Under the pieces are notes generated by a model. That model saw only the letters and a list, made by a program, of their open reading frames with translations, was not told the origin of the DNA and made no database searches. Below are positions 3,752 through 24,352 of a DNA stretch of 64,000 bases, in pieces. The stretch's first letter is position 1. Each line of letters starts with the position of its first letter. The translations under genes were made by a program, and so were the position numbers. This DNA comes from Ferruginibacter sp. (GTDB lineage Bacteria > Bacteroidota > Bacteroidia > Chitinophagales > Chitinophagaceae). The DNA is taken from positions 9,640 to 73,639 of the forward strand of contig JANOZW010000254.1 in NCBI GenBank assembly GCA_031429575.1. The letters are read 5' to 3'.

Positions 3752-4912
3752 TTATTCTTTTATAAATCTAAGTAAAACATTTGTTGATTTATCTTCTTTT
3801 TGCAATATGATGAAATAGTTACCAGCAGATAATTCATTATTGATTGGTAATTTAAAGGAGTAAACACTATCAAGGGTAATCTTTTTTTGGAGATAAAACT
3901 TTCCACTTACATCCAATAAGCTAACTAGGTAGTCACCTTTAAACAATACATCTTTAGATGCAATGGTAATATTTTTCTCTTTTGTTACAGGATTTGGATA
4001 ACAATACACATTCTGGTTTTGTTTGCTGCCACAAGTGCCATCAAATAATACGATTGGTGAATATTTAAAAGTGCCATCATTGTCAATGGATTTTAATCTC
4101 ACAAATAAAGTAGGTGATTTTATCTGGTCAAAAATTGCAATAGAAGTATCATACTTATTTTTATTTTCAGCTTTTAACGAACCTATCTTGGCAAAATTAG
4201 TACCGTCTTTGCTTAGTTCTACGTCATATTTTAAAACATTTGTTTCCTCACTTACAGACCAATTAACATCAATGTGGCAATCTTTATTATAAGCCCTAAA
4301 ATTACTAATGGTAACAGGTAAAACGCTAGCAATAATGGTGTATTGAACAAAAGCATTATTATTTCCAGAATTGTCGTCGGAAAGTACAAAACTAGGATTG
4401 TTGTTAGCAACAAAAAAATTGCCCGTTACAGTTGATGTTGCAAGTGTATTAGCTTTTACATCAAAAACAAATTGCCCATTAAAATCAATTGGTAATGCTG
4501 TGTTAATTATACATCTTATTTTGGGTTGGCTACCAGTGGTGATGTACGAAAAAGTAAAATAGTTACTTAATGCTGCGTTACTTAAATAATTATTTAAAGC
4601 CGTGGCATTAGCAGTAACAGCAGGGTTAAGAACAAATTTTGTTCCAAGGCCAATATCTATGAAAGCTGTATTAGCAGGGATGGCACTAGATAAACTTAAA
4701 TTAAAAACATCTAACTTAATTTTATATATACTATTAAGAGATATAGAATTTGCATCTACAGAAACATCCGCTACATTGGTAACATCAAACGACCCTAATG
4801 CTGGGTCTGCAAAAACGGGTGTTGTCTGCGCATAGCTCGATAAAGAAGCAATAATAGGAATCAAGAGTATTAAGGTATAACGAAAAGATAGTGATACGTA
4901 ATTTTTTTTCAT
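3752..4912 (-). CDS. T9SS type A sorting domain protein with an uncharacterised N-terminal Ig-like domain
   Basis: Signal peptide ending SYA-Q, LPVTISNF linker, C-terminal YPNP...AGNYFI CTD. Confidence 0.85.
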   Translation of the reverse strand: MKKNYVSLSFRYTLILLIPIIASLSSYAQTTPVFADPALGSFDVTNVADVSVDANSISLNSIYKIKLDVFNLSLSSAIPANTAFIDIGLGTKFVLNPAVTANATALNNYLSNAALSNYFTFSYITTGSQPKIRCIINTALPIDFNGQFVFDVKANTLATSTVTGNFFVANNNPSFVLSDDNSGNNNAFVQYTIIASVLPVTISNFRAYNKDCHIDVNWSVSEETNVLKYDVELSKDGTNFAKIGSLKAENKNKYDTSIAIFDQIKSPTLFVRLKSIDNDGTFKYSPIVLFDGTCGSKQNQNVYCYPNPVTKEKNITIASKDVLFKGDYLVSLLDVSGKFYLQKKITLDSVYSFKLPINNELSAGNYFIILQKEDKSTNVLLRFIKE

Positions 4913-9300: not shown

Positions 9301-12300
9301 TCCTTCAGGGCCCCAGCATCCCAATGCAGATTGTGCTCTAAAATAATAGGTTCCAGAACTTGTAACTGTTTGCGAAGAAGATGCTGTGGTTGTAGAGATA
9401 CCACCAGAGGTTGTACCCTGAAAATACATCGTACCATCATTTCCATTAGACGCTGTAATTATTGTGCTTGTACAGAAAGTACCAACTCCGCTAGCGATAG
9501 TTACCACAGGAAGCGGATTAACAGTGATAGTAACCATTGAAGAATTATCCGTAGATGTATTCGTAGCACAAGTAACCCTTAACCAATAATAAGTAGTGGC
9601 ACTTACTAAACCTGTGGTAAGTGTTGCTGGGTTAGTTTGTCCTGAAATTATGTTTCCAGCATTTGGGTAGTCTCCTAAAACAGTAGATGAAATCCACTGA
9701 TATGTACTTCCAGTTCCTGATGAATAACCTGTAGCTGTTATAGTTGGAGTGCCGGATCCACAGAAAGAAGAAGATCCCGAGGCAGTACCAGCTAAAGCTG
9801 TAGTACATCCTGGTGAAGTGAATTCATCAGCACCAATATCTGGTGTAGATGCATCACGAGCATCGTTATCAAAGTCATTGATTGTTGAAATTGCTGTTGC
9901 TTTTGTATCTATGCCTGCGTTTGACGTTGTAACCAAATGTAAATCCGTATTTGAAGTAAATACAGGGGCAACGTTAATAGAATTACCATTTCCTCCAAAA
10001 CCTGTAGTTAATGTTGCTAGGGTTGTTCTGTCAGTTGCAGCTATATTTCCAAGTACAGCAGAAGCTGCATTAAAGGTATTGCTTACAAAATAATCGTTAT
10101 AGTTAATGTTTGCAAATGCCGTATTGGCTGCTGCTGAATAAATAGCATAGTTTTTTTGAGTTGTACTAGTAGCAACCTGATTATTTACCAATAAGTTGTT
10201 ACGTATATCCAATACACTTGCCCCTGAGCCAATATATAATGCGGTTGTAAGTGCGGTTGTAGAACCAGCGCCCATGCTTCCATACATATTCACACTATTG
10301 TAGTATACGTTAATACCACCTGTTGTTGTGCCTAAGCTTGTACTGTTTCCAATTGTACCAATAGCTATACCCATACTGGAAGAATTGGTAAACCCAGAAA
10401 AGTTAGACCCACTTACACCACTAATAAAGTTGTTGGCAATCGTTAGGTTACTAGTAGCTGTTCCAGTACCTATAGTAATACCACGACCACCATAACCACC
10501 TGTGTTAGTAGTTAATGACTTTGTAATATTATTTCTGGTAACAGATGAAGAAACAAAGCCTGTTTCAAGAGAAATACCTGTAGGTGCCTGAGTTGTTGTG
10601 GTTTCTTCACTTACTGTATTTTGACTTATAGAACTATTTAAAGCATTTCCAAGCTGCATTCCAAGGGATGCTAGTGTACCAGTATAGGTAATTGAATTCC
10701 CAATAATGGCTAAATTATCATCCCCACCTGTTGAAACAGAAGCTGTACCATTCGCATAAATACCGATAGGTGCAACAGTAACAGCATTGTTCTGTAAAGT
10801 TACATTATCATTATCTGCACCAGATGTTCCTGGCGTATTTCCACCAACAGCAATACCATATCCTATTGAAGTAGCCACACCTGTGCTAATATTGCAATTT
10901 TTAATTGTATTATTTGTTGCTCCCAAGCCTGCTCCAAGACTAACGAATGAAATCCCAGTTGAGGCTGTTGTAGCAGTATTGGTAATAGTAAGATCACGGG
11001 TTGTAGTACCATTGTTACTACCGTCTACAGTCACATAATCTGCACCATTTAATTTTATTAAAGCAGCACTTGCTAGCGCACCACTAATAGTTGATGTTAC
11101 ACCAGCCGCTGGTTTAATGGTTAATGTATTAGTAGCACTTGCGCCTGTAAATGCATTAATTGTAAGTGGGAAAGTTTCTGTTGTTGAGCTATAATCAGAC
11201 TGTAGAGCAAATGTAACTGCACTACCAACTCCGTAAGCATTTAAATCTAAAATAGCATCTGTTAATTTAGTATAGTTAGGTGCTACTTGAGAAGCGCCAA
11301 TTTGGTATATCCCATTTAAAGCTGCTTTAATTATTCTTGTTCCCGCTGGCGCAGTTACAGATGGTGTTTGTACAGTTCCAATATTAAATCCGATACATTC
11401 TGCATCAAGTACATTACTAACTGTAGCACTTGCCGGCACATCATACACTAACCAGAAATAGTTGGTTCCTTCTGCTAACATTTGCGAACCGGTAACTGTA
11501 TAGGGAACTGATGGTGTTGGTACATCTGCACCAAATTGCGTGGTAGTTGCAAATGTATTGCTTGTGCCAGTATAATACACTCTAGCATTAGCAATATCAG
11601 CTGCAGAGCTTGTAGAACCTGTTGTATTGAAATCCATACTGCTTAAAGTGAGTGGACTTGCATTTCCTAGCGTTACTATCTGTACCCCAATTATTTGTTG
11701 GTTAGTAGCTGGTTTTACAATTGCCGTAGTAACAGCTTGAGTAGTTGTACTTGAAACATATGACATTGAAACGGCTTTTATACCCAATGCATAATAATTT
11801 GCTAAGGTTGTAATTAGTGGAGGAGCCTGAGTTGTTATTGTTGTAGCTGTAACCGTAGGCGAAGCTCCACCGGCTAAATCATAAGCACCAGCTAAACTTG
11901 CACTACTAGCAATTGCATTGGCTGTACCTAATGCTGTAGCTGTTTGTTCAGTAAGTTTAAGTTGTGTGCTTGTAAAATCGCCCGATACTAAAGATGTTGC
12001 CCAGTACCTATTGCTGTTTAATGATGTCATATTTACACCTGCTGTTCCTGCTGCATCTGCATCAAAAACCTCCGCCATAATTACTGGGCCAGCAGCACCT
12101 GTTGTAATATTAACCAAATCAAGTGGATTAAATCCTGATTTTCCTATTGGGAAACTATATGTAGTTATACCTGTTAAAGATGGAGGTAAAGTAAGTTGTA
12201 GCGGTCCGTTTACCCAACCACCAATACCGCTCACTACAGATGCACCACCTGAGAGGGCAGTAATTGGTGCTGCCGATGCCACAAACGTTGTTGTATTAGT

Positions 12301-19980: not shown

Positions 19981-20646
19981 ATGCAAACAGACAACAATAA
20001 TGCATTTGTAATTTCATATTTAAACCTACGCTTAGGTTTAGGGTTTGTAGGTTTTTTTCTTCCGATAATTTTAATGGCGGGCACATGGGGGTTGGCAGAT
20101 TGTACCCAGTTACAACCTTCGTTAAGCCATTATTATTATACCATTATGGGAGATTATTTTGTAGGCTCTTTGTGTGCCGTAGCCATGTTTTTATTTTTTT
20201 ATAAAGGGGTAGATAAGCAAGACGGCATCATTGCAAACTTTGCTGCAGTATTTGCTTTATTGGTTGCATTTTTCCCTACCAACCCCAGTGTAGATTCTAT
20301 TTGCCAATACATTTCTACCAATAAAGTTGCGTCTGTAAATGCTGTACATTATTCAGCCGCAGCCTTACTATTTGCAAGCTTTGCTTATTTTTCTATTTTT
20401 TTATTTACCAAAACTGATCCTACAAAAGAAATGACAGCGCATAAAAAAATGAGGAATCGTATTTATGTAACTTGTGGTATTATCATTATTATTTGTGTGA
20501 CTCTTATTGCCATATATAATTTTGTTGGCAAACTAGAAACAACTTTTGCTAAATATAAACCAACCTTGGTATTAGAAAGTATTGCACTCTTTGCATTTGG
20601 CACATCGTGGATTACAAAGGGAGAAATGATTTTGAAGGATGTATAA
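19981..20646 (+). CDS. Multi-pass membrane protein (DUF998-like)
   Basis: ISYLNLRLGLGFVGFFLP, SLSHYYYT, VHYSAAALLF, ESIALFAFGTSWITKGE. Confidence 0.65.
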   Translation: MQTDNNNAFVISYLNLRLGLGFVGFFLPIILMAGTWGLADCTQLQPSLSHYYYTIMGDYFVGSLCAVAMFLFFYKGVDKQDGIIANFAAVFALLVAFFPTNPSVDSICQYISTNKVASVNAVHYSAAALLFASFAYFSIFLFTKTDPTKEMTAHKKMRNRIYVTCGIIIIICVTLIAIYNFVGKLETTFAKYKPTLVLESIALFAFGTSWITKGEMILKDV

Positions 20647-20654
20647 AAAATTTA

Positions 20655-20918
20655 TTAATAGCTTATGCCTACACCACAAGTTAAAAATCCAAGCAAGAGC
20701 AAGAGTCCACCACTCATTAAAAAACCTTGTGCATAGCGTTTATCTTCTGCCATTAATAAAAATAAACCTACTACTAGCGCAATGAGCCCACCCACAAGAA
20801 ATACCAAACCTACAACTATTGATAATTCGCTTATAATATTTTGTGTGATTGTATAGATTACTGAAAATAAAATTGCACCTGCAAGATTTATTAAAATGAT
20901 TTTTACTGGTAGTTTCAT
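20655..20918 (-). CDS. 87-aa membrane peptide C with C-terminal TM-Cys motif
   Basis: Three hydrophobic segments; ends KRYAQGFLMSGGLLLLLGFLTC-GVGISY; 4-nt gap from the upstream gene. Confidence 0.8.
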   Translation of the reverse strand: MKLPVKIILINLAGAILFSVIYTITQNIISELSIVVGLVFLVGGLIALVVGLFLLMAEDKRYAQGFLMSGGLLLLLGFLTCGVGISY

Positions 20919-20922
20919 ATAT

Positions 20923-21186
20923 CTAAATTTTTACTTGGTACATAGAACAAATACTAAGACCAATAACCAAAGAAATACCTGCACTCATTAATAACCCCTT
21001 GCCTATATTTCGAGTGCTTAAAAAAATACACAAAATTATACCAACAAATAAATATAAAACAGAGAGCAATAAACCAGATAAGCCAACCATGGCTAACTGC
21101 TCTGTGCTATTATAAAAAAATACTCCTGCCCCAATGATAGCATAAGTTATTAAACAAAATATTAGGGTGTTTTTAAAATCTTTCAT
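20923..21186 (-). CDS. 87-aa membrane peptide B with C-terminal TM-Cys motif
   Basis: Ends RNIGKGLLMSAGISLVIGLSIC-SMYQVKI. Confidence 0.8.
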   Translation of the reverse strand: MKDFKNTLIFCLITYAIIGAGVFFYNSTEQLAMVGLSGLLLSVLYLFVGIILCIFLSTRNIGKGLLMSAGISLVIGLSICSMYQVKI

Positions 21187-21198
21187 TTAACAATTGTT

Positions 21199-21405
21199 TT
21201 AATGCCCACCACCAAAACTCATATTACTGCACATTGAAAACCCAATTACTACAAACACACCAAATAGCAATATCCCTCCCAGCAAAAATCTCAATCCTAC
21301 TTTTCGTTTCTGTTCATCGCTGCTGCACATTTTTACAATACCCATTATTACAAATATTAATGGCAACACAACTACAATAAATAATAATGCTATTAACGCT
21401 TCCAT
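21199..21405 (-). CDS. 68-aa membrane peptide A with C-terminal TM-Cys motif
   Basis: Ends KRKVGLRFLLGGILLFGVFVVIGFSMC-SNMSFGGGH; 9 nt after the rSAM stop. Confidence 0.8.
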   Translation of the reverse strand: MEALIALLFIVVVLPLIFVIMGIVKMCSSDEQKRKVGLRFLLGGILLFGVFVVIGFSMCSNMSFGGGH

Positions 21406-21414
21406 AATTATTTT

Positions 21415-22821
21415 TTACACAGGTAAACTTTCTCTTTCGGCCTGCAATATTTTTAAATACGCTTCCTTATCATCTCTATAAAAAAGATTCATGGTTTCAA
21501 AAGGTATGATGCGCCCATCCTTATGTACAATGTGTACGCAACTTTTTTTAATGGCTCGTACATCAAAATCATATGCATCTATAAAACGCATAATTATTAT
21601 ACGAAATAAATTTTCGTAGCCTAAACCTGGAGCTTCTATTTGTGGCAAACAACAAAGCAATTGTTTCATATTTTCTTCTACCCTATCTACAGAAATACCT
21701 GTGCTAAAAATATCAATCATTTTTTCTTTTAGCGCATCGTCTTGCTCATAAATAATGGTGTTGCGGCTATTGTCTAATAAATGGGTTGGATCAATATAGC
21801 GTGTAAGGGGAAAAGTTTGTCCTGATAATTTTAATGCATAACCCATCACCAAAGCATCTGGGTTACAAGGTACAGGCAACAAATCATTTGGTTTAAAAAT
21901 ATTGGTTTGTTCTAGTATTTTTCTGCGCACATCTGTTAGCGTAATCCTATCTGTAGCAGGGTTAAAGTTTTCTGTACGACCTGCTACTTGTGTAGGCTGA
22001 AACGTAACACCTCTTACACACTTTTGTTTGAGTGCAAATTCAATTATCTTTCCTATTTCATCATCATTTACTCCTTGCTGCAATGTTACTACCAATGTTG
22101 TTGAAAGATTTAATGCATTCAAATGTTCCAATGCTTTCATTCTTGTTTCAGTTAAATCTTTACCACGCAATTGCTCTAATGCAGATGATTTAAAGGAATC
22201 AAATTGCAAATAAATTTCAAAGTCGGGCGCATAAGTAGCTAGTTGCTTTGTAAACTCAAAATCTTTTGCGATTCTTATTCCATTTGTATTAAGCATTAAA
22301 TGCTTTATCGGTTTCTTTTTTGCAATATCCATTATGGCAAAAAAATCTGGATGCACCGTAGGTTCTCCTCCACTTATTTGTACTACATCTGGCGAACCTT
22401 CTGCAGCTACAATTATATCGAGCATTTTTTCTACTTCTTCCACCGTTCTGTGTCTTCCATAATGTGGGCTACTCATGGCATAGCAAGTAGGGCAAGCAAG
22501 GTTGCACCTATCTGTAATTTCAATAACCGTAAGGCAACTGTGCTGCTCATGATCTTGGCAAAGCCCACAATCGTACGGGCAACCATAATGTGTTTTTGTG
22601 GTAAAATGCAATGGCGTTTCCGAAGGCTTATTATAATTACGAATGTTTTTATAATACTCAATATCGGTTGCAATCAACACTTTTTCAAAGCCATGTTCAC
22701 GACATGTTTTAAGCATATACACATTGTCGTTTTCAAAAACAATTTTAGCATCTACACGTCGTAGGCATGTGCTACAAATACTTAGTGTAAAATCGTAATA
22801 GGTGTAGGGGCGGTTAGGCAT
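21415..22821 (-). CDS. Radical SAM enzyme, Tes/GDGT-MAS (MJ0619, COG1964)-like
   Basis: N-terminal CSTC...CREH, GCPYDCGLCQDH, rSAM CNLACPTC, ISGGEPTVH, C-terminal SCVH...GRIIPF; ATG 22821 overlaps the lgt-like stop. Confidence 0.8.
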   Translation of the reverse strand: MPNRPYTYYDFTLSICSTCLRRVDAKIVFENDNVYMLKTCREHGFEKVLIATDIEYYKNIRNYNKPSETPLHFTTKTHYGCPYDCGLCQDHEQHSCLTVIEITDRCNLACPTCYAMSSPHYGRHRTVEEVEKMLDIIVAAEGSPDVVQISGGEPTVHPDFFAIMDIAKKKPIKHLMLNTNGIRIAKDFEFTKQLATYAPDFEIYLQFDSFKSSALEQLRGKDLTETRMKALEHLNALNLSTTLVVTLQQGVNDDEIGKIIEFALKQKCVRGVTFQPTQVAGRTENFNPATDRITLTDVRRKILEQTNIFKPNDLLPVPCNPDALVMGYALKLSGQTFPLTRYIDPTHLLDNSRNTIIYEQDDALKEKMIDIFSTGISVDRVEENMKQLLCCLPQIEAPGLGYENLFRIIIMRFIDAYDFDVRAIKKSCVHIVHKDGRIIPFETMNLFYRDDKEAYLKILQAERESLPV

Positions 22822-23569
22822 TTGCTTGCAATAGTTTTTTGGGTTGAAGTATATATTTATAATAATAAATAAAACCAATAATTGAAGTTAGTTGAATTGT
22901 AGATAACCCAACTAAAACAGTGTAAGAAGGTTTGATAAATTCTTGTGAAAATCTATATACACAATACGCAATCATAAATATTTTAAACCTTGCACCTTCG
23001 GCTAATGTATATTTTTTTCCTATTTGCCTAAGACCAATCCAAAGTATTAAAAGGAATATAATTTCATATAAACTTACAGGATGACGCAGTAAACCATCAC
23101 CCAAATTCATTCCTGTAAAAAATGTTGTAACCTTGCCATACGTTTCTTCATACACGCCCATACTAAAACATCCGATGCGCCCGATGATAAGCGCTAATAT
23201 AATTGGATACGTAAACAAATCGCCACTGTTTCGTTTTTCTCCAATGATTTTTTTAATGAGTTCTACGCCAAATAATCCTCCTAAAAAACCACCCAATACT
23301 GTTTTATTACTATAGATGTATAGCAAAATATTTTTGGTGAGAAATAACTCATAGGGTCTTTCTAGTGAGCCTACCAGCCTACTTCCTATTAGTGAACCAA
23401 AAATAGCACCTATCAAAATCCATAGTCTATTTTCAGTTTTTATACTGTCGCCCTGCTTCTTTTTGAGAAAAATAAAATATCGAAAACCAATAAAAAATGC
23501 CAGCACTTCTGTAATAGCATGAAGTGGTAAGGTATTATTGCCAAAAGAAATTCCTATGGGGAAATGCAT
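22814..23569 (-). CDS. Prolipoprotein diacylglyceryl transferase (Lgt) family paralog
   Basis: Multi-TM; KTVLGGFLGG, GRIGCF, RHPVSLYE, YRFSQEFIK; ATG 23569 (MHFP) preferred. Confidence 0.85.
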   Translation of the reverse strand: MHFPIGISFGNNTLPLHAITEVLAFFIGFRYFIFLKKKQGDSIKTENRLWILIGAIFGSLIGSRLVGSLERPYELFLTKNILLYIYSNKTVLGGFLGGLFGVELIKKIIGEKRNSGDLFTYPIILALIIGRIGCFSMGVYEETYGKVTTFFTGMNLGDGLLRHPVSLYEIIFLLILWIGLRQIGKKYTLAEGARFKIFMIAYCVYRFSQEFIKPSYTVLVGLSTIQLTSIIGFIYYYKYILQPKKLLQANA

Positions 23570-23583
23570 TTTTAAAAATTTAA

Positions 23584-24237
23584 CTATTGCTTTACCCAAA
23601 TGATACCACCAGGGTTTCTTTCATAAGAAATAATGCCATTATTTTTTGCAAGTATAAATTTATATACACCAGCTTTTTTATTTACAAACGTATCTCTACT
23701 AATTATTTGAACAGTTGGGTAAGAGTTTCCAGCTACATTATAATTAGAAAAATTTTGGACTGTTGCATTTATGCCATCACCATCACTAAAACTAACTTTA
23801 TCAAAGCCGTTTTCTATTATGCCTACTCCTGAAATATTGTTTTGGTATAAATAAATAGAAACATTTCTACCAACATCTGTGGAATAAACGGCTTGTGATA
23901 CAGATAACATAACATTAAATATTGAACGCCCTGAAGAATCTGTTTTAGTACTTCTGAGCGCTTTTACAGCTTCACAAGATCCTGTAGTACTTTTTACTTG
24001 ATACTCTGACGTAGAATCTGTTAACCTAAGATTAAAAGTATCATATGCATTGGTACTATTCTTAAAAATTAATTTTTGATTACTTTTATATGGAAACCAG
24101 CTATCTAGTAACGCATCATTATATCCACCACATGGTACTGTTTTAGAGCAAGTGCTTTCACAAGAATATATAGAAAGTATAAAGGGGCATAGTATCATAA
24201 ATATTATACTTTTTTTATTGATATTTATTTTATACAT
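23584..24237 (-). CDS. Putative lipoprotein, hypothetical
   Basis: Hydrophobic N-terminus with lipobox-like SIYS-C, then ESTCSKTVPC. Confidence 0.7.
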   Translation of the reverse strand: MYKININKKSIIFMILCPFILSIYSCESTCSKTVPCGGYNDALLDSWFPYKSNQKLIFKNSTNAYDTFNLRLTDSTSEYQVKSTTGSCEAVKALRSTKTDSSGRSIFNVMLSVSQAVYSTDVGRNVSIYLYQNNISGVGIIENGFDKVSFSDGDGINATVQNFSNYNVAGNSYPTVQIISRDTFVNKKAGVYKFILAKNNGIISYERNPGGIIWVKQ

Positions 24238-24303: not shown

Positions 24304-24329
24304 CAAAAAAGCCAAGCCTTTCGGCTTGG
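24304..24329 (-). terminator. Intrinsic terminator of the ECF operon
   Basis: Minus strand GCCAAGCC-GAAA-GGCTTGGC-TTTTTT. Confidence 0.85.
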
Positions 24330-24352
24330 CGATACCAAATTCAAAAAAATAT

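Follow-up and report, generated by a model that had tools for sequence, protein, structure and literature searches.

Mini-proteins A, B and C, encoded by a tight minus-strand operon of Ferruginibacter sp. (GenBank assembly GCA_031429575.1, contig JANOZW010000254.1), are small membrane proteins of a family that has no database model and in which a cysteine close to the C-terminus is the only invariant residue. Their genes lie directly behind those of a paralog of the diacylglyceryl transferase Lgt and of a radical S-adenosylmethionine (radical SAM) enzyme related to archaeal Tes/GDGT-MAS. The explanation that we tentatively prefer, at somewhat less than an even chance, is that A, B and C are dedicated substrates in a three-part membrane system formed by the Lgt paralog, the Tes-like enzyme and the Cys-tailed mini-proteins. 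All positions given below refer to the window, i.e., the whole stretch of 64,000 nucleotides that was analysed (positions 9,640 to 73,639 of the contig, forward strand).

A family of Cys-tailed mini-proteins

Mini-protein A (21199..21405, minus strand) has 68 residues and two transmembrane (TM) helices; its Cys59 (codon 21231..21229) closes the motif IGFSMC and is followed by the tail SNMSFGGGH. B (20923..21186, minus strand) and C (20655..20918, minus strand) both have 87 residues and three TM helices, with Cys80 of B (codon 20949..20947) in the motif IGLSIC before the tail SMYQVKI, and Cys81 of C (codon 20678..20676) in LGFLTC before GVGISY. An AlphaFold2 model of C (pLDDT 83) places helices at residues 3-26, 32-56 and 60-86. 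None of the three belongs to a Pfam, NCBIfam or PADLOC family, and the only matches were sub-threshold ones to unrelated TM families, in at most 2 of 93 family members.

These members come from 80 loci of named genomes with close relatives of the radical SAM enzyme, in which small open reading frames (ORFs) were chosen only by position, length and the presence of two or more hydrophobic segments. Downstream of the radical SAM gene, 107 such small multi-TM ORFs were obtained, one to four per locus, and in 103 of them a Cys lies no more than ~15 residues from the C-terminus. The hydrophobicity and gap thresholds of the parsing missed the radical SAM ORF in 4 of the 80 loci and a few mini-proteins (L016, L112 and G259 were recovered by eye). 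When 93 non-redundant members were aligned, with a mean column identity of 24%, the Cys was the sole invariant column. The resulting profile retrieved C (E = 2e-21, 70.7 bits), B (4e-19, 78.1 bits) and A (7e-10, 41.2 bits) from the genome of the window and nothing else better than 8e-4. At E <= 0.001 its matches comprised at least 924 cluster representatives (clustering at 50% identity), of which 159 reached E <= 1e-10; all are 71-142 residues long, and the Cys is present in 150 of the 150 best-scoring representatives. Since the Cys column contributes only a small part of the 58-84-bit scores, this conservation among profile matches is not circular.

The ORFs also evolve as genes. Between strains whose radical SAM enzymes are 98-99% identical, the ratio of synonymous to non-synonymous changes was 5/2, 6/3 and 21/7 in the three ORFs, as compared to 93/5 in the radical SAM gene. 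The synonymous excess in all three ORFs indicates translation and purifying selection, much less tight than for the radical SAM enzyme. Between loci whose radical SAM enzymes are 96% identical, the mini-proteins are only 52-69% identical, and their copy number turns over fast. Together with the one to four tandem paralogs per locus and the purifying selection, this divergence suggests substrate-like behaviour rather than that of an enzyme subunit. A, B and C are confirmed as genuine members of one family without an existing database model. Hydrophobic ORFs arising by chance in AT-rich DNA, with no relation to the enzymes encoded next to them, would account for the small size and low complexity of the mini-proteins and for nothing else; that explanation is refuted by E-values down to 2e-21, at least 924 clusters, purifying selection and a co-occurrence p value of 5e-31 (see below), so that we give it a negligible probability.

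The last helix and its C-terminal tail

Motif statistics were obtained for 238 members anchored on the Cys (position 0, 100%). Position -21 is R or K in 82% of them, positions -18 and -16 are G or A in most, and L prevails at -14 (82%) and -6 (84%). Glycine occupies -10 in 78% and -4 in 87%, the remainder having S at -4 with G at -3, as in LSGISC. The residue after the Cys is S, T or G in 98%. The conserved residues G-18, L-14, G-10 and L-6 follow i, i+4 spacing and, with G-4, mark one face of the ~20-residue helix. The signal-peptide-like architecture proposed in a preliminary description of these genes, i.e., a basic residue, a hydrophobic helix and then the Cys, is thus borne out across the family. 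The sequence details given there are also correct for the 8/19 ungapped identities between B and C (counted by eye over GKGLLMSAGISLVIGLSIC / AQGFLMSGGLLLLLGFLTC), for M, I and T at -1 and for Gly at -4. The 4-residue insertion that it assumed in A is not needed, since a Cys-anchored alignment of A is gapless from -16 to 0 and includes G-16, G-10 and G-4.

For comparison, 290 lipoprotein-like N-termini of the host genome were collected, allowing any uncharged residue at -1 to -4. In these, position -1 is S, A or G in 73% and V, I or L in 9%, G is found at -4 in only 3%, and K, N or S follows the Cys. In the mini-protein family, on the other hand, -1 is V, I, T or L in about 80% of the members. 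The motif is therefore unlike the host's own lipoboxes, which fits recognition by a dedicated Lgt paralog. Signal peptidase II (LspA) requires a small residue at -1, and the bulky or beta-branched residue found here argues against cleavage. A, B and C lack an N-terminal signal peptide, their Cys being located 6-9 residues from the C-terminus after the second or third TM helix, and they lack the canonical lipobox [LVI][ASTVI][GAS]C with its small -1 residue. They do possess a basic n-region, a hydrophobic h-region and, as predicted by the positive-inside rule, a non-cytoplasmic Cys.

The tails behind the Cys have 2-13 residues (median 7), among which S, G, F, L and N are frequent, and are uncharged overall (D+E 0.4%, K+R 4%). 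The three tail sequences listed in the preliminary description are present as given, whereas calling them hypervariable was too strong: between strains with 98-99% identical radical SAM enzymes, tails show at most one conservative change, the A-type tail CSNMxFGGGH is shared with other genera such as Taibaiella, and 34% of the members end in His. The entropy of the tails is 3.1-3.6 bits per position, and the N-terminal helices are about equally variable.

The density of K+R in the 238 members is 0.27 at the N-terminus of three-TM members, 0.08 in the first loop, 0.32-0.43 in the loop leading into the last helix and 0.03-0.04 behind the Cys; two-TM members have no K or R at the N-terminus. With the positive-inside rule, these densities predict a periplasmic Cys and tail in both architectures, in line with the orientation originally suggested. 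A cytoplasmic or non-conserved Cys would have spoken against that proposal, and neither was found, the Cys being conserved and predicted to be non-cytoplasmic.

The architecture resembles that of a signal peptidase II substrate, the genes are short, tandem and adjacent to modifying enzymes (one to four mini-protein genes directly downstream of the radical SAM gene), and the tails differ between species. All of this would suit precursors resembling ribosomally synthesized and post-translationally modified peptides (RiPPs), in which the helix serves as leader and a cut in front of the lipidated Cys sets free diacylglyceryl lipopeptides of 2-13 residues. The preliminary description had favoured such a scheme, with a conserved leader, a variable core and lipopeptides of 7-10 residues. 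However, only the last helix is conserved, while the N-terminal helices vary about as much as the tail. When every ORF of 90 or more residues in the 80 loci was clustered, no conserved protease and no conserved exporter or transporter emerged, and the radical SAM enzyme contains, by Pfam, a Zn-ribbon and a Radical_SAM domain only, without a RiPP recognition element (RRE) or a SPASM domain. Furthermore, the single LspA gene is unlinked, and the prevalence of V, I, T or L at -1 (about 80%, against 73% S, A or G in the host's own lipoproteins) is the opposite of the LspA preference. The tails are conserved within subtypes and strains, can be as short as 2-4 residues and are purely hydrophobic in some clades. 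We consider release of lipopeptides distinctly improbable.

The Lgt paralog

The Lgt paralog is encoded at 22814..23569 (minus strand; 251 residues counted from the ATG at 23569, the start being as in homologues). It matches the Pfam family LGT (PF01790) with 71.8 bits (cut-off 24.9, E = 6.9e-20) over profile positions 2-233 of 240, and it scored 71.6 bits when the genome was searched with the same profile. A direct phmmer comparison with PDB sequences was uninformative (E = 0.3), making the family profile and a fold search necessary. With an AlphaFold2 model of pLDDT 87, the sole fold match in the PDB at E <= 0.001 was E. coli Lgt (5AZB; E = 1.8e-6, probability 1.00, TM-score 0.56), and the modeled protein has the seven-TM fold of Lgt.

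A profile alignment to 5AZB located the GRIGC, YRF..[DE]F and RHPVxLYE blocks in the paralog. The residues R143, Y235, R239, E243, H103 and N146 are named here with the numbering of the E. coli literature, which also assigns their roles. Counterparts of R143, Y235, R239 and E243 are retained, as is the RHPxxLYE block, and R131, Y202, R206, R162, P164, Y168 and E169 are invariant in 18 Lgt paralogs. From sequence and model, the paralog looks like an active Lgt.

The host genome has a separate housekeeping Lgt (441 residues) and a single LspA, both encoded elsewhere and unlinked to the operon. The housekeeping Lgt (G000 C186:12555-13493, locus L087) carries a large insertion after GRIGC, with Cys at the position of N146 and Tyr at that of H103.

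The radical SAM enzyme

The radical SAM enzyme (21415..22821, minus strand; 468 residues counted from the ATG at 22821) consists of the Pfam domains Zn_ribbon_HMPTM and Radical_SAM. Tes/GDGT-MAS is an archaeal enzyme that couples lipid tails, and it reportedly acts where these tails meet at the bilayer midplane. The enzyme of the window aligns with GDGT-MAS/Tes (PDB 7TOL) at E = 2.3e-64 over query residues 11-457, with the motifs in register, and retains the Zn-ribbon, CPYDCGLC and CxxxCxxC motifs. It has KKSCVH where GDGT-MAS has RCCIH.

It scores below the equivalog cut-offs of both Tes (NF045702, 286.6 bits vs. 450) and TrsS (NF045646, 330.7 bits vs. 490). Membership of TrsS was rejected, with none of 401 Bacteroidota genomes reaching the TrsS cut-off; the one paper we found that names TrsS has it as an entry in a table of selenoproteins, with no function given. 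A selenoprotein reading of the radical SAM gene of genome G319 was likewise dismissed: its in-frame TGA is most simply a stop codon, and the orthologue in G456 ends at the same place.

Co-occurrence and distribution of the three components

In 78 of the 80 loci, the radical SAM gene is immediately preceded by that of the Lgt paralog. Among 251 genomes of the family, 34 have the radical SAM enzyme and 36 a match to the mini-protein profile; both occur in 31, the enzyme only in 3, the mini-protein only in 5 and neither in 212 (Fisher p = 5e-31). The three genomes with only the enzyme all have a diverged TM-Cys ORF beside these genes, in one case between the Lgt-like and radical SAM genes. As to the genomes with only a mini-protein, in one the enzyme gene is cut off where the contig ends, and three have weak matches that do not reach the C-terminus. 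In a sample of 401 genomes of the phylum, searched for the Lgt paralog with a threshold at which housekeeping Lgt is not picked up, paralog and radical SAM enzyme occur together in 29 of 31 genomes. The trio is dispersed over three separate places and yet complete in genus g21 (G044/G194) and in G326, and this retention of unlinked genes suggests a functional tie rather than mere inheritance as an operon. The proposal that a non-canonical lipobox is served by a dedicated Lgt is thus supported, given the separate housekeeping Lgt, the difference from the host's 290 lipoboxes, the adjacency in 78/80 loci and the co-occurrence in 29/31 genomes.

Two further genomes of the survey deviate in gene content. 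G368 has two Lgt paralogs and two mini-protein matches on contigs C17 and C47, which suggests that it carries two cassettes. G093 encodes an Lgt paralog (C10:163724-164452, 210 bits), with no radical SAM enzyme at E <= 1e-40 and no mini-protein match.

In other Bacteroidota families the trio is found with radical SAM enzymes of 59-77% identity, and variants of the mini-protein motif there include GLGICG, GAGACA, GGCICG and NGMCN. A sister subfamily, with radical SAM enzymes of 41-43% identity, also encodes an ICMT-family methyltransferase and a DUF4395 protein. ICMT enzymes methylate lipidated C-terminal cysteines, and by analogy the methyltransferase is a supporting hint for Cys lipidation. 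In two such cassettes (L138 6369-8448 and L139 4986-8585) the order is radical SAM, ICMT, DUF4395, LGT and a small TM protein ending in VGGCLLII or FGACMVGIGG...; the methyltransferase matches PF04140 at 5.6e-16, and its nearest NCBIfam model is isoprenylcysteine O-methyltransferase.

The trio is present as well in a third subfamily, with radical SAM enzymes that are ~34% identical to that of the window and ~70% identical to each other across Gemmatimonadota, Chloroflexota and Acidobacteriota. One locus from each of these three phyla, the basis for the distribution outside Bacteroidota, has the radical SAM gene flanked by one of the LGT family and by one for a small TM protein with the C-terminus FGGCTVLVLSNLGNMH, FFGICLAIIYSSY or VFAVCRANSDKPWI. 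In these loci and in G424 the radical SAM gene is followed by that of another small, conserved membrane protein, DPLRFCV[FW]TTVALLAW...GLxxS[KRD]C[FVI]L[RG]DPRL (L163 4584-4955, L164 4588-4860, L165 3294-3668, and L140 about 4278-4600 on the minus strand), which is absent from the subfamily of the window. With this distribution, the trio suggests that four bacterial phyla or more possess a pathway of lipid-protein modification that has not been described. We found no description of the cassette in literature on Tes homologues, diacylglyceryl transferase or radical SAM precursor peptides.

That the radical SAM enzyme is a clear homologue of the lipid-tail-coupling GDGT-MAS also suits a system in which the enzymes act on bulk membrane lipids, giving for example membrane-spanning lipids, and the mini-protein is a stoichiometric helper and not the end product. 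Its Cys might then transiently hold a lipid as thioether or thioester, or the mini-protein might offer the Tes-like enzyme a lipid from the outer leaflet. In Acidobacteriota and Chloroflexota the cassette accompanies the bacterial Tes homologues, which have been discussed as candidate makers of membrane-spanning lipids (PMC11868695), and the single conserved helix face of the mini-protein is what one would expect for protein-protein contact in the membrane. On the other hand, one to four fast-diverging paralogs per locus with subtype-specific tails would be odd for a generic carrier. A carrier would share the Cys-lipid bond with our preferred explanation and differ only in what counts as the product. 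We regard a carrier or scaffold role as unlikely, though it is the alternative to which we give most weight.

A possible mechanism

With dedicated substrates as the preferred role of A, B and C, the following scheme can be drawn, in which the lipidation of the Cys would itself be slightly less probable than not. The mini-protein would insert such that its last helix runs from the cytoplasmic basic loop to the periplasmic face, where it would end in the invariant Cys with Ser, Thr or Gly after it. The Lgt paralog would recognise this helix within the membrane and transfer a diacylglyceryl group to the Cys thiol. Cleavage by signal peptidase II would not follow, so that the S-lipidated mini-protein would keep its helix anchor and a short, uncharged tail in the periplasm. 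The radical SAM enzyme, acting from the cytoplasmic side on acyl-tail ends near the bilayer midplane as Tes does, could then modify this lipid, with C-C coupling between tail ends as the most plausible reaction.

In a bolder version of this scheme, a membrane-spanning lipid is tethered to the mini-proteins, which act as its ribosomally made primers or anchors: the Lgt paralog would add diacylglycerol to the periplasmic Cys, and the radical SAM enzyme would join the end of one of the acyl tails to the tail of an inner-leaflet lipid, giving a covalent protein-bolalipid that staples the two leaflets. We see this as a doubtful extension with a small chance of being right. If it were true, the cassette could be the missing context for bacterial membrane-spanning lipids of the branched glycerol dialkyl glycerol tetraether (brGDGT) or diabolic-acid type.

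Several observations weigh against the preferred scheme, in which every chemical step is inferred. In the Lgt paralog the counterpart of H103 is Leu (the invariant L96) and that of N146 is Cys, the latter as in the host's housekeeping Lgt, and the score against the NCBIfam lgt equivalog TIGR00544 is 28.4 bits, below the cut-off of 118.9. With these two residues missing and a score under the cut-off, the donor or the acceptor of the paralog could differ. The predicted periplasmic position of the Cys follows from charge statistics. Some clades have short hydrophobic tails (CAVLLANS, CFVVA), and in these the Cys may be inside the helix rather than at the interface. Furthermore, a minority paralog is without the Cys (L032, L035). 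This Cys-less paralog of 89 residues, which may be a degenerate or regulatory copy, has the same three-TM layout and basic loop, ends in ...LLLIGLIFYFLLNKY and is part of the same tandem arrays (L032 from 8588, L035 from 8624, and L004).

The radical SAM enzyme adds a further objection. Its IIPFETMN aligns to IIPFCTYN of GDGT-MAS, with Glu in place of the IPFC Cys, so one presumptive cluster-region Cys appears to be replaced and the chemistry need not be Tes-like. The replacement could be accommodated if the mini-proteins tethered or partnered the radical SAM enzyme and their Cys were a metal or cluster ligand standing in for the lost IPFC Cys, with the Lgt paralog acting elsewhere. Many tails end in His, and Cys and His together could bind a metal. 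Yet charge statistics place the Cys opposite the cytoplasmic radical SAM enzyme, the equally strict co-occurrence of the Lgt paralog is left unexplained, and multiple divergent paralogs would be unusual for a cluster-donating subunit. A partner subunit is therefore very improbable in our judgement, slightly more so than a lipopeptide precursor.

Operon layout and neighbouring genes

The gene order of the operon is lipoprotein, Lgt paralog, radical SAM enzyme, A, B and C, the mini-protein genes being the last three. The start of the radical SAM gene and the stop of the Lgt paralog overlap by 8 nt, 9 nt separate the radical SAM stop from the start of A, and the gaps between A and B and between B and C are 12 and 4 nt. 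On the 3' side of C a convergent gene ends at 20646. The 5' boundary is given by a terminator-like hairpin of the upstream gene (24311..24330, minus strand), with an 8-bp stem including 6 GC pairs, followed by a T run. Two loci with radical SAM enzymes 98-99% identical to that of the window (L151 2548-2977 and L154 2549-2978) have a HicA/HicB-like toxin-antitoxin pair between the Lgt paralog and radical SAM genes; a similar insertion is found in L003 (radical SAM 87% identical) and none in the window.

The first gene (23584..24237, minus strand) encodes a lipoprotein of 217 residues with the canonical lipobox LSIYSC and a Cys-rich N-terminus. After the lipobox it reads SC-ESTCSKTVPCGG, the corresponding sequences in relatives being GCTICSSKKITC and ACNTVCSTKKVGC. 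No family match was found in Pfam or NCBIfam. It is encoded upstream of the Lgt paralog in 18 of the 80 related loci and could be an accessory component or a second substrate. Recurrent neighbours in the 80 loci are limited to this lipoprotein and LeuRS- and Dxs-like housekeeping genes. The upstream genes for an extracytoplasmic function (ECF) sigma factor, an anti-sigma factor and a DUF4097 protein were rejected as parts of the system; confined to the closest relatives and missing from the 80 loci, they are mere neighbours.

Implications

If the Cys is lipidated, the cassette would represent a second, dedicated branch of bacterial protein lipidation, relying on an Lgt paralog and on mini-proteins made for the purpose, with a non-canonical lipobox that is internal and stays uncleaved. 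Coupled to this branch would be a radical SAM enzyme akin to the one by which archaea join lipid tails. A small-protein family of at least 900 clusters, modelled by no database, gains a testable function. In metagenomes, bacterial Tes homologues are at present counted as candidate markers for organisms that produce tetraethers (brGDGT). Because they sit in a three-gene cassette in every lineage examined (outside Bacteroidota, in three loci), functional claims about them should take the cassette into account. The hypothesis is directly testable in several cultured carriers that are non-pathogenic, among them Niabella drilacis DSM 25811, Segetibacter aerophilus NBRC 106135, Filimonas zeae, Flavisolibacter nicotianae, Taibaiella koreensis, Pedobacter yulinensis and Olivibacter ginsenosidimutans.

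Comparison with known systems

The closest parallel to the proposed lipidation is Lgt/LspA maturation of lipoproteins. Common to both are an LGT-family enzyme that has the fold of Lgt and its conserved Arg/Arg/Glu/Tyr set, and a target consisting of basic residues, a hydrophobic helix, a Cys at the outer face and then a small polar residue. In the mini-proteins, however, the signal-like segment is the last helix of a polytopic protein of 60-100 residues and a full TM segment of ~20 residues. The motif is G-[FY]-[SA]-[VIT]-C-[STG] instead of [LVI][ASTVI][GAS]C, the part corresponding to the mature protein comprises just 2-13 residues, and cleavage is not expected. The enzyme, moreover, is a short paralog (~250 residues) that exists alongside a housekeeping Lgt.

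With Tes/GDGT-MAS (MJ0619 family; 7TOL, 7TOM; NF045702), the radical SAM enzyme shares full-length homology, including the N-terminal Zn-ribbon or rubredoxin-like CxxC...CxxH site, the auxiliary CPYDCGLC motif and CxxxCxxC. It differs in being bacterial, in scoring under the equivalog cut-offs, in having Glu for the IPFC Cys and in having an Lgt paralog and a Cys mini-protein as constant partners. To our knowledge, neither of these two partners is part of the archaeal Tes system.

Small, tandem, fast-evolving genes beside a radical SAM enzyme and a lipid-transferring enzyme are reminiscent of lipidated RiPPs and radical SAM RiPP maturases (sactipeptides, selidamides, lipolanthines). Whereas those are RiPP systems, the cassette has no RRE or SPASM domain, leader protease or exporter, its would-be leader is a membrane helix, and the product is probably retained in the membrane. 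Eukaryotic CaaX processing is similar in that a presumptive lipidation Cys is located a few residues from the C-terminus and in that an ICMT gene lies between the radical SAM and Lgt-like genes of the sister subfamily (L138, L139). It is unlike the cassette in four respects: the cassette has no prenyltransferase or CaaX protease, the version in the window is without ICMT, the tail has 2-13 residues instead of 3, and the Cys follows a TM helix.

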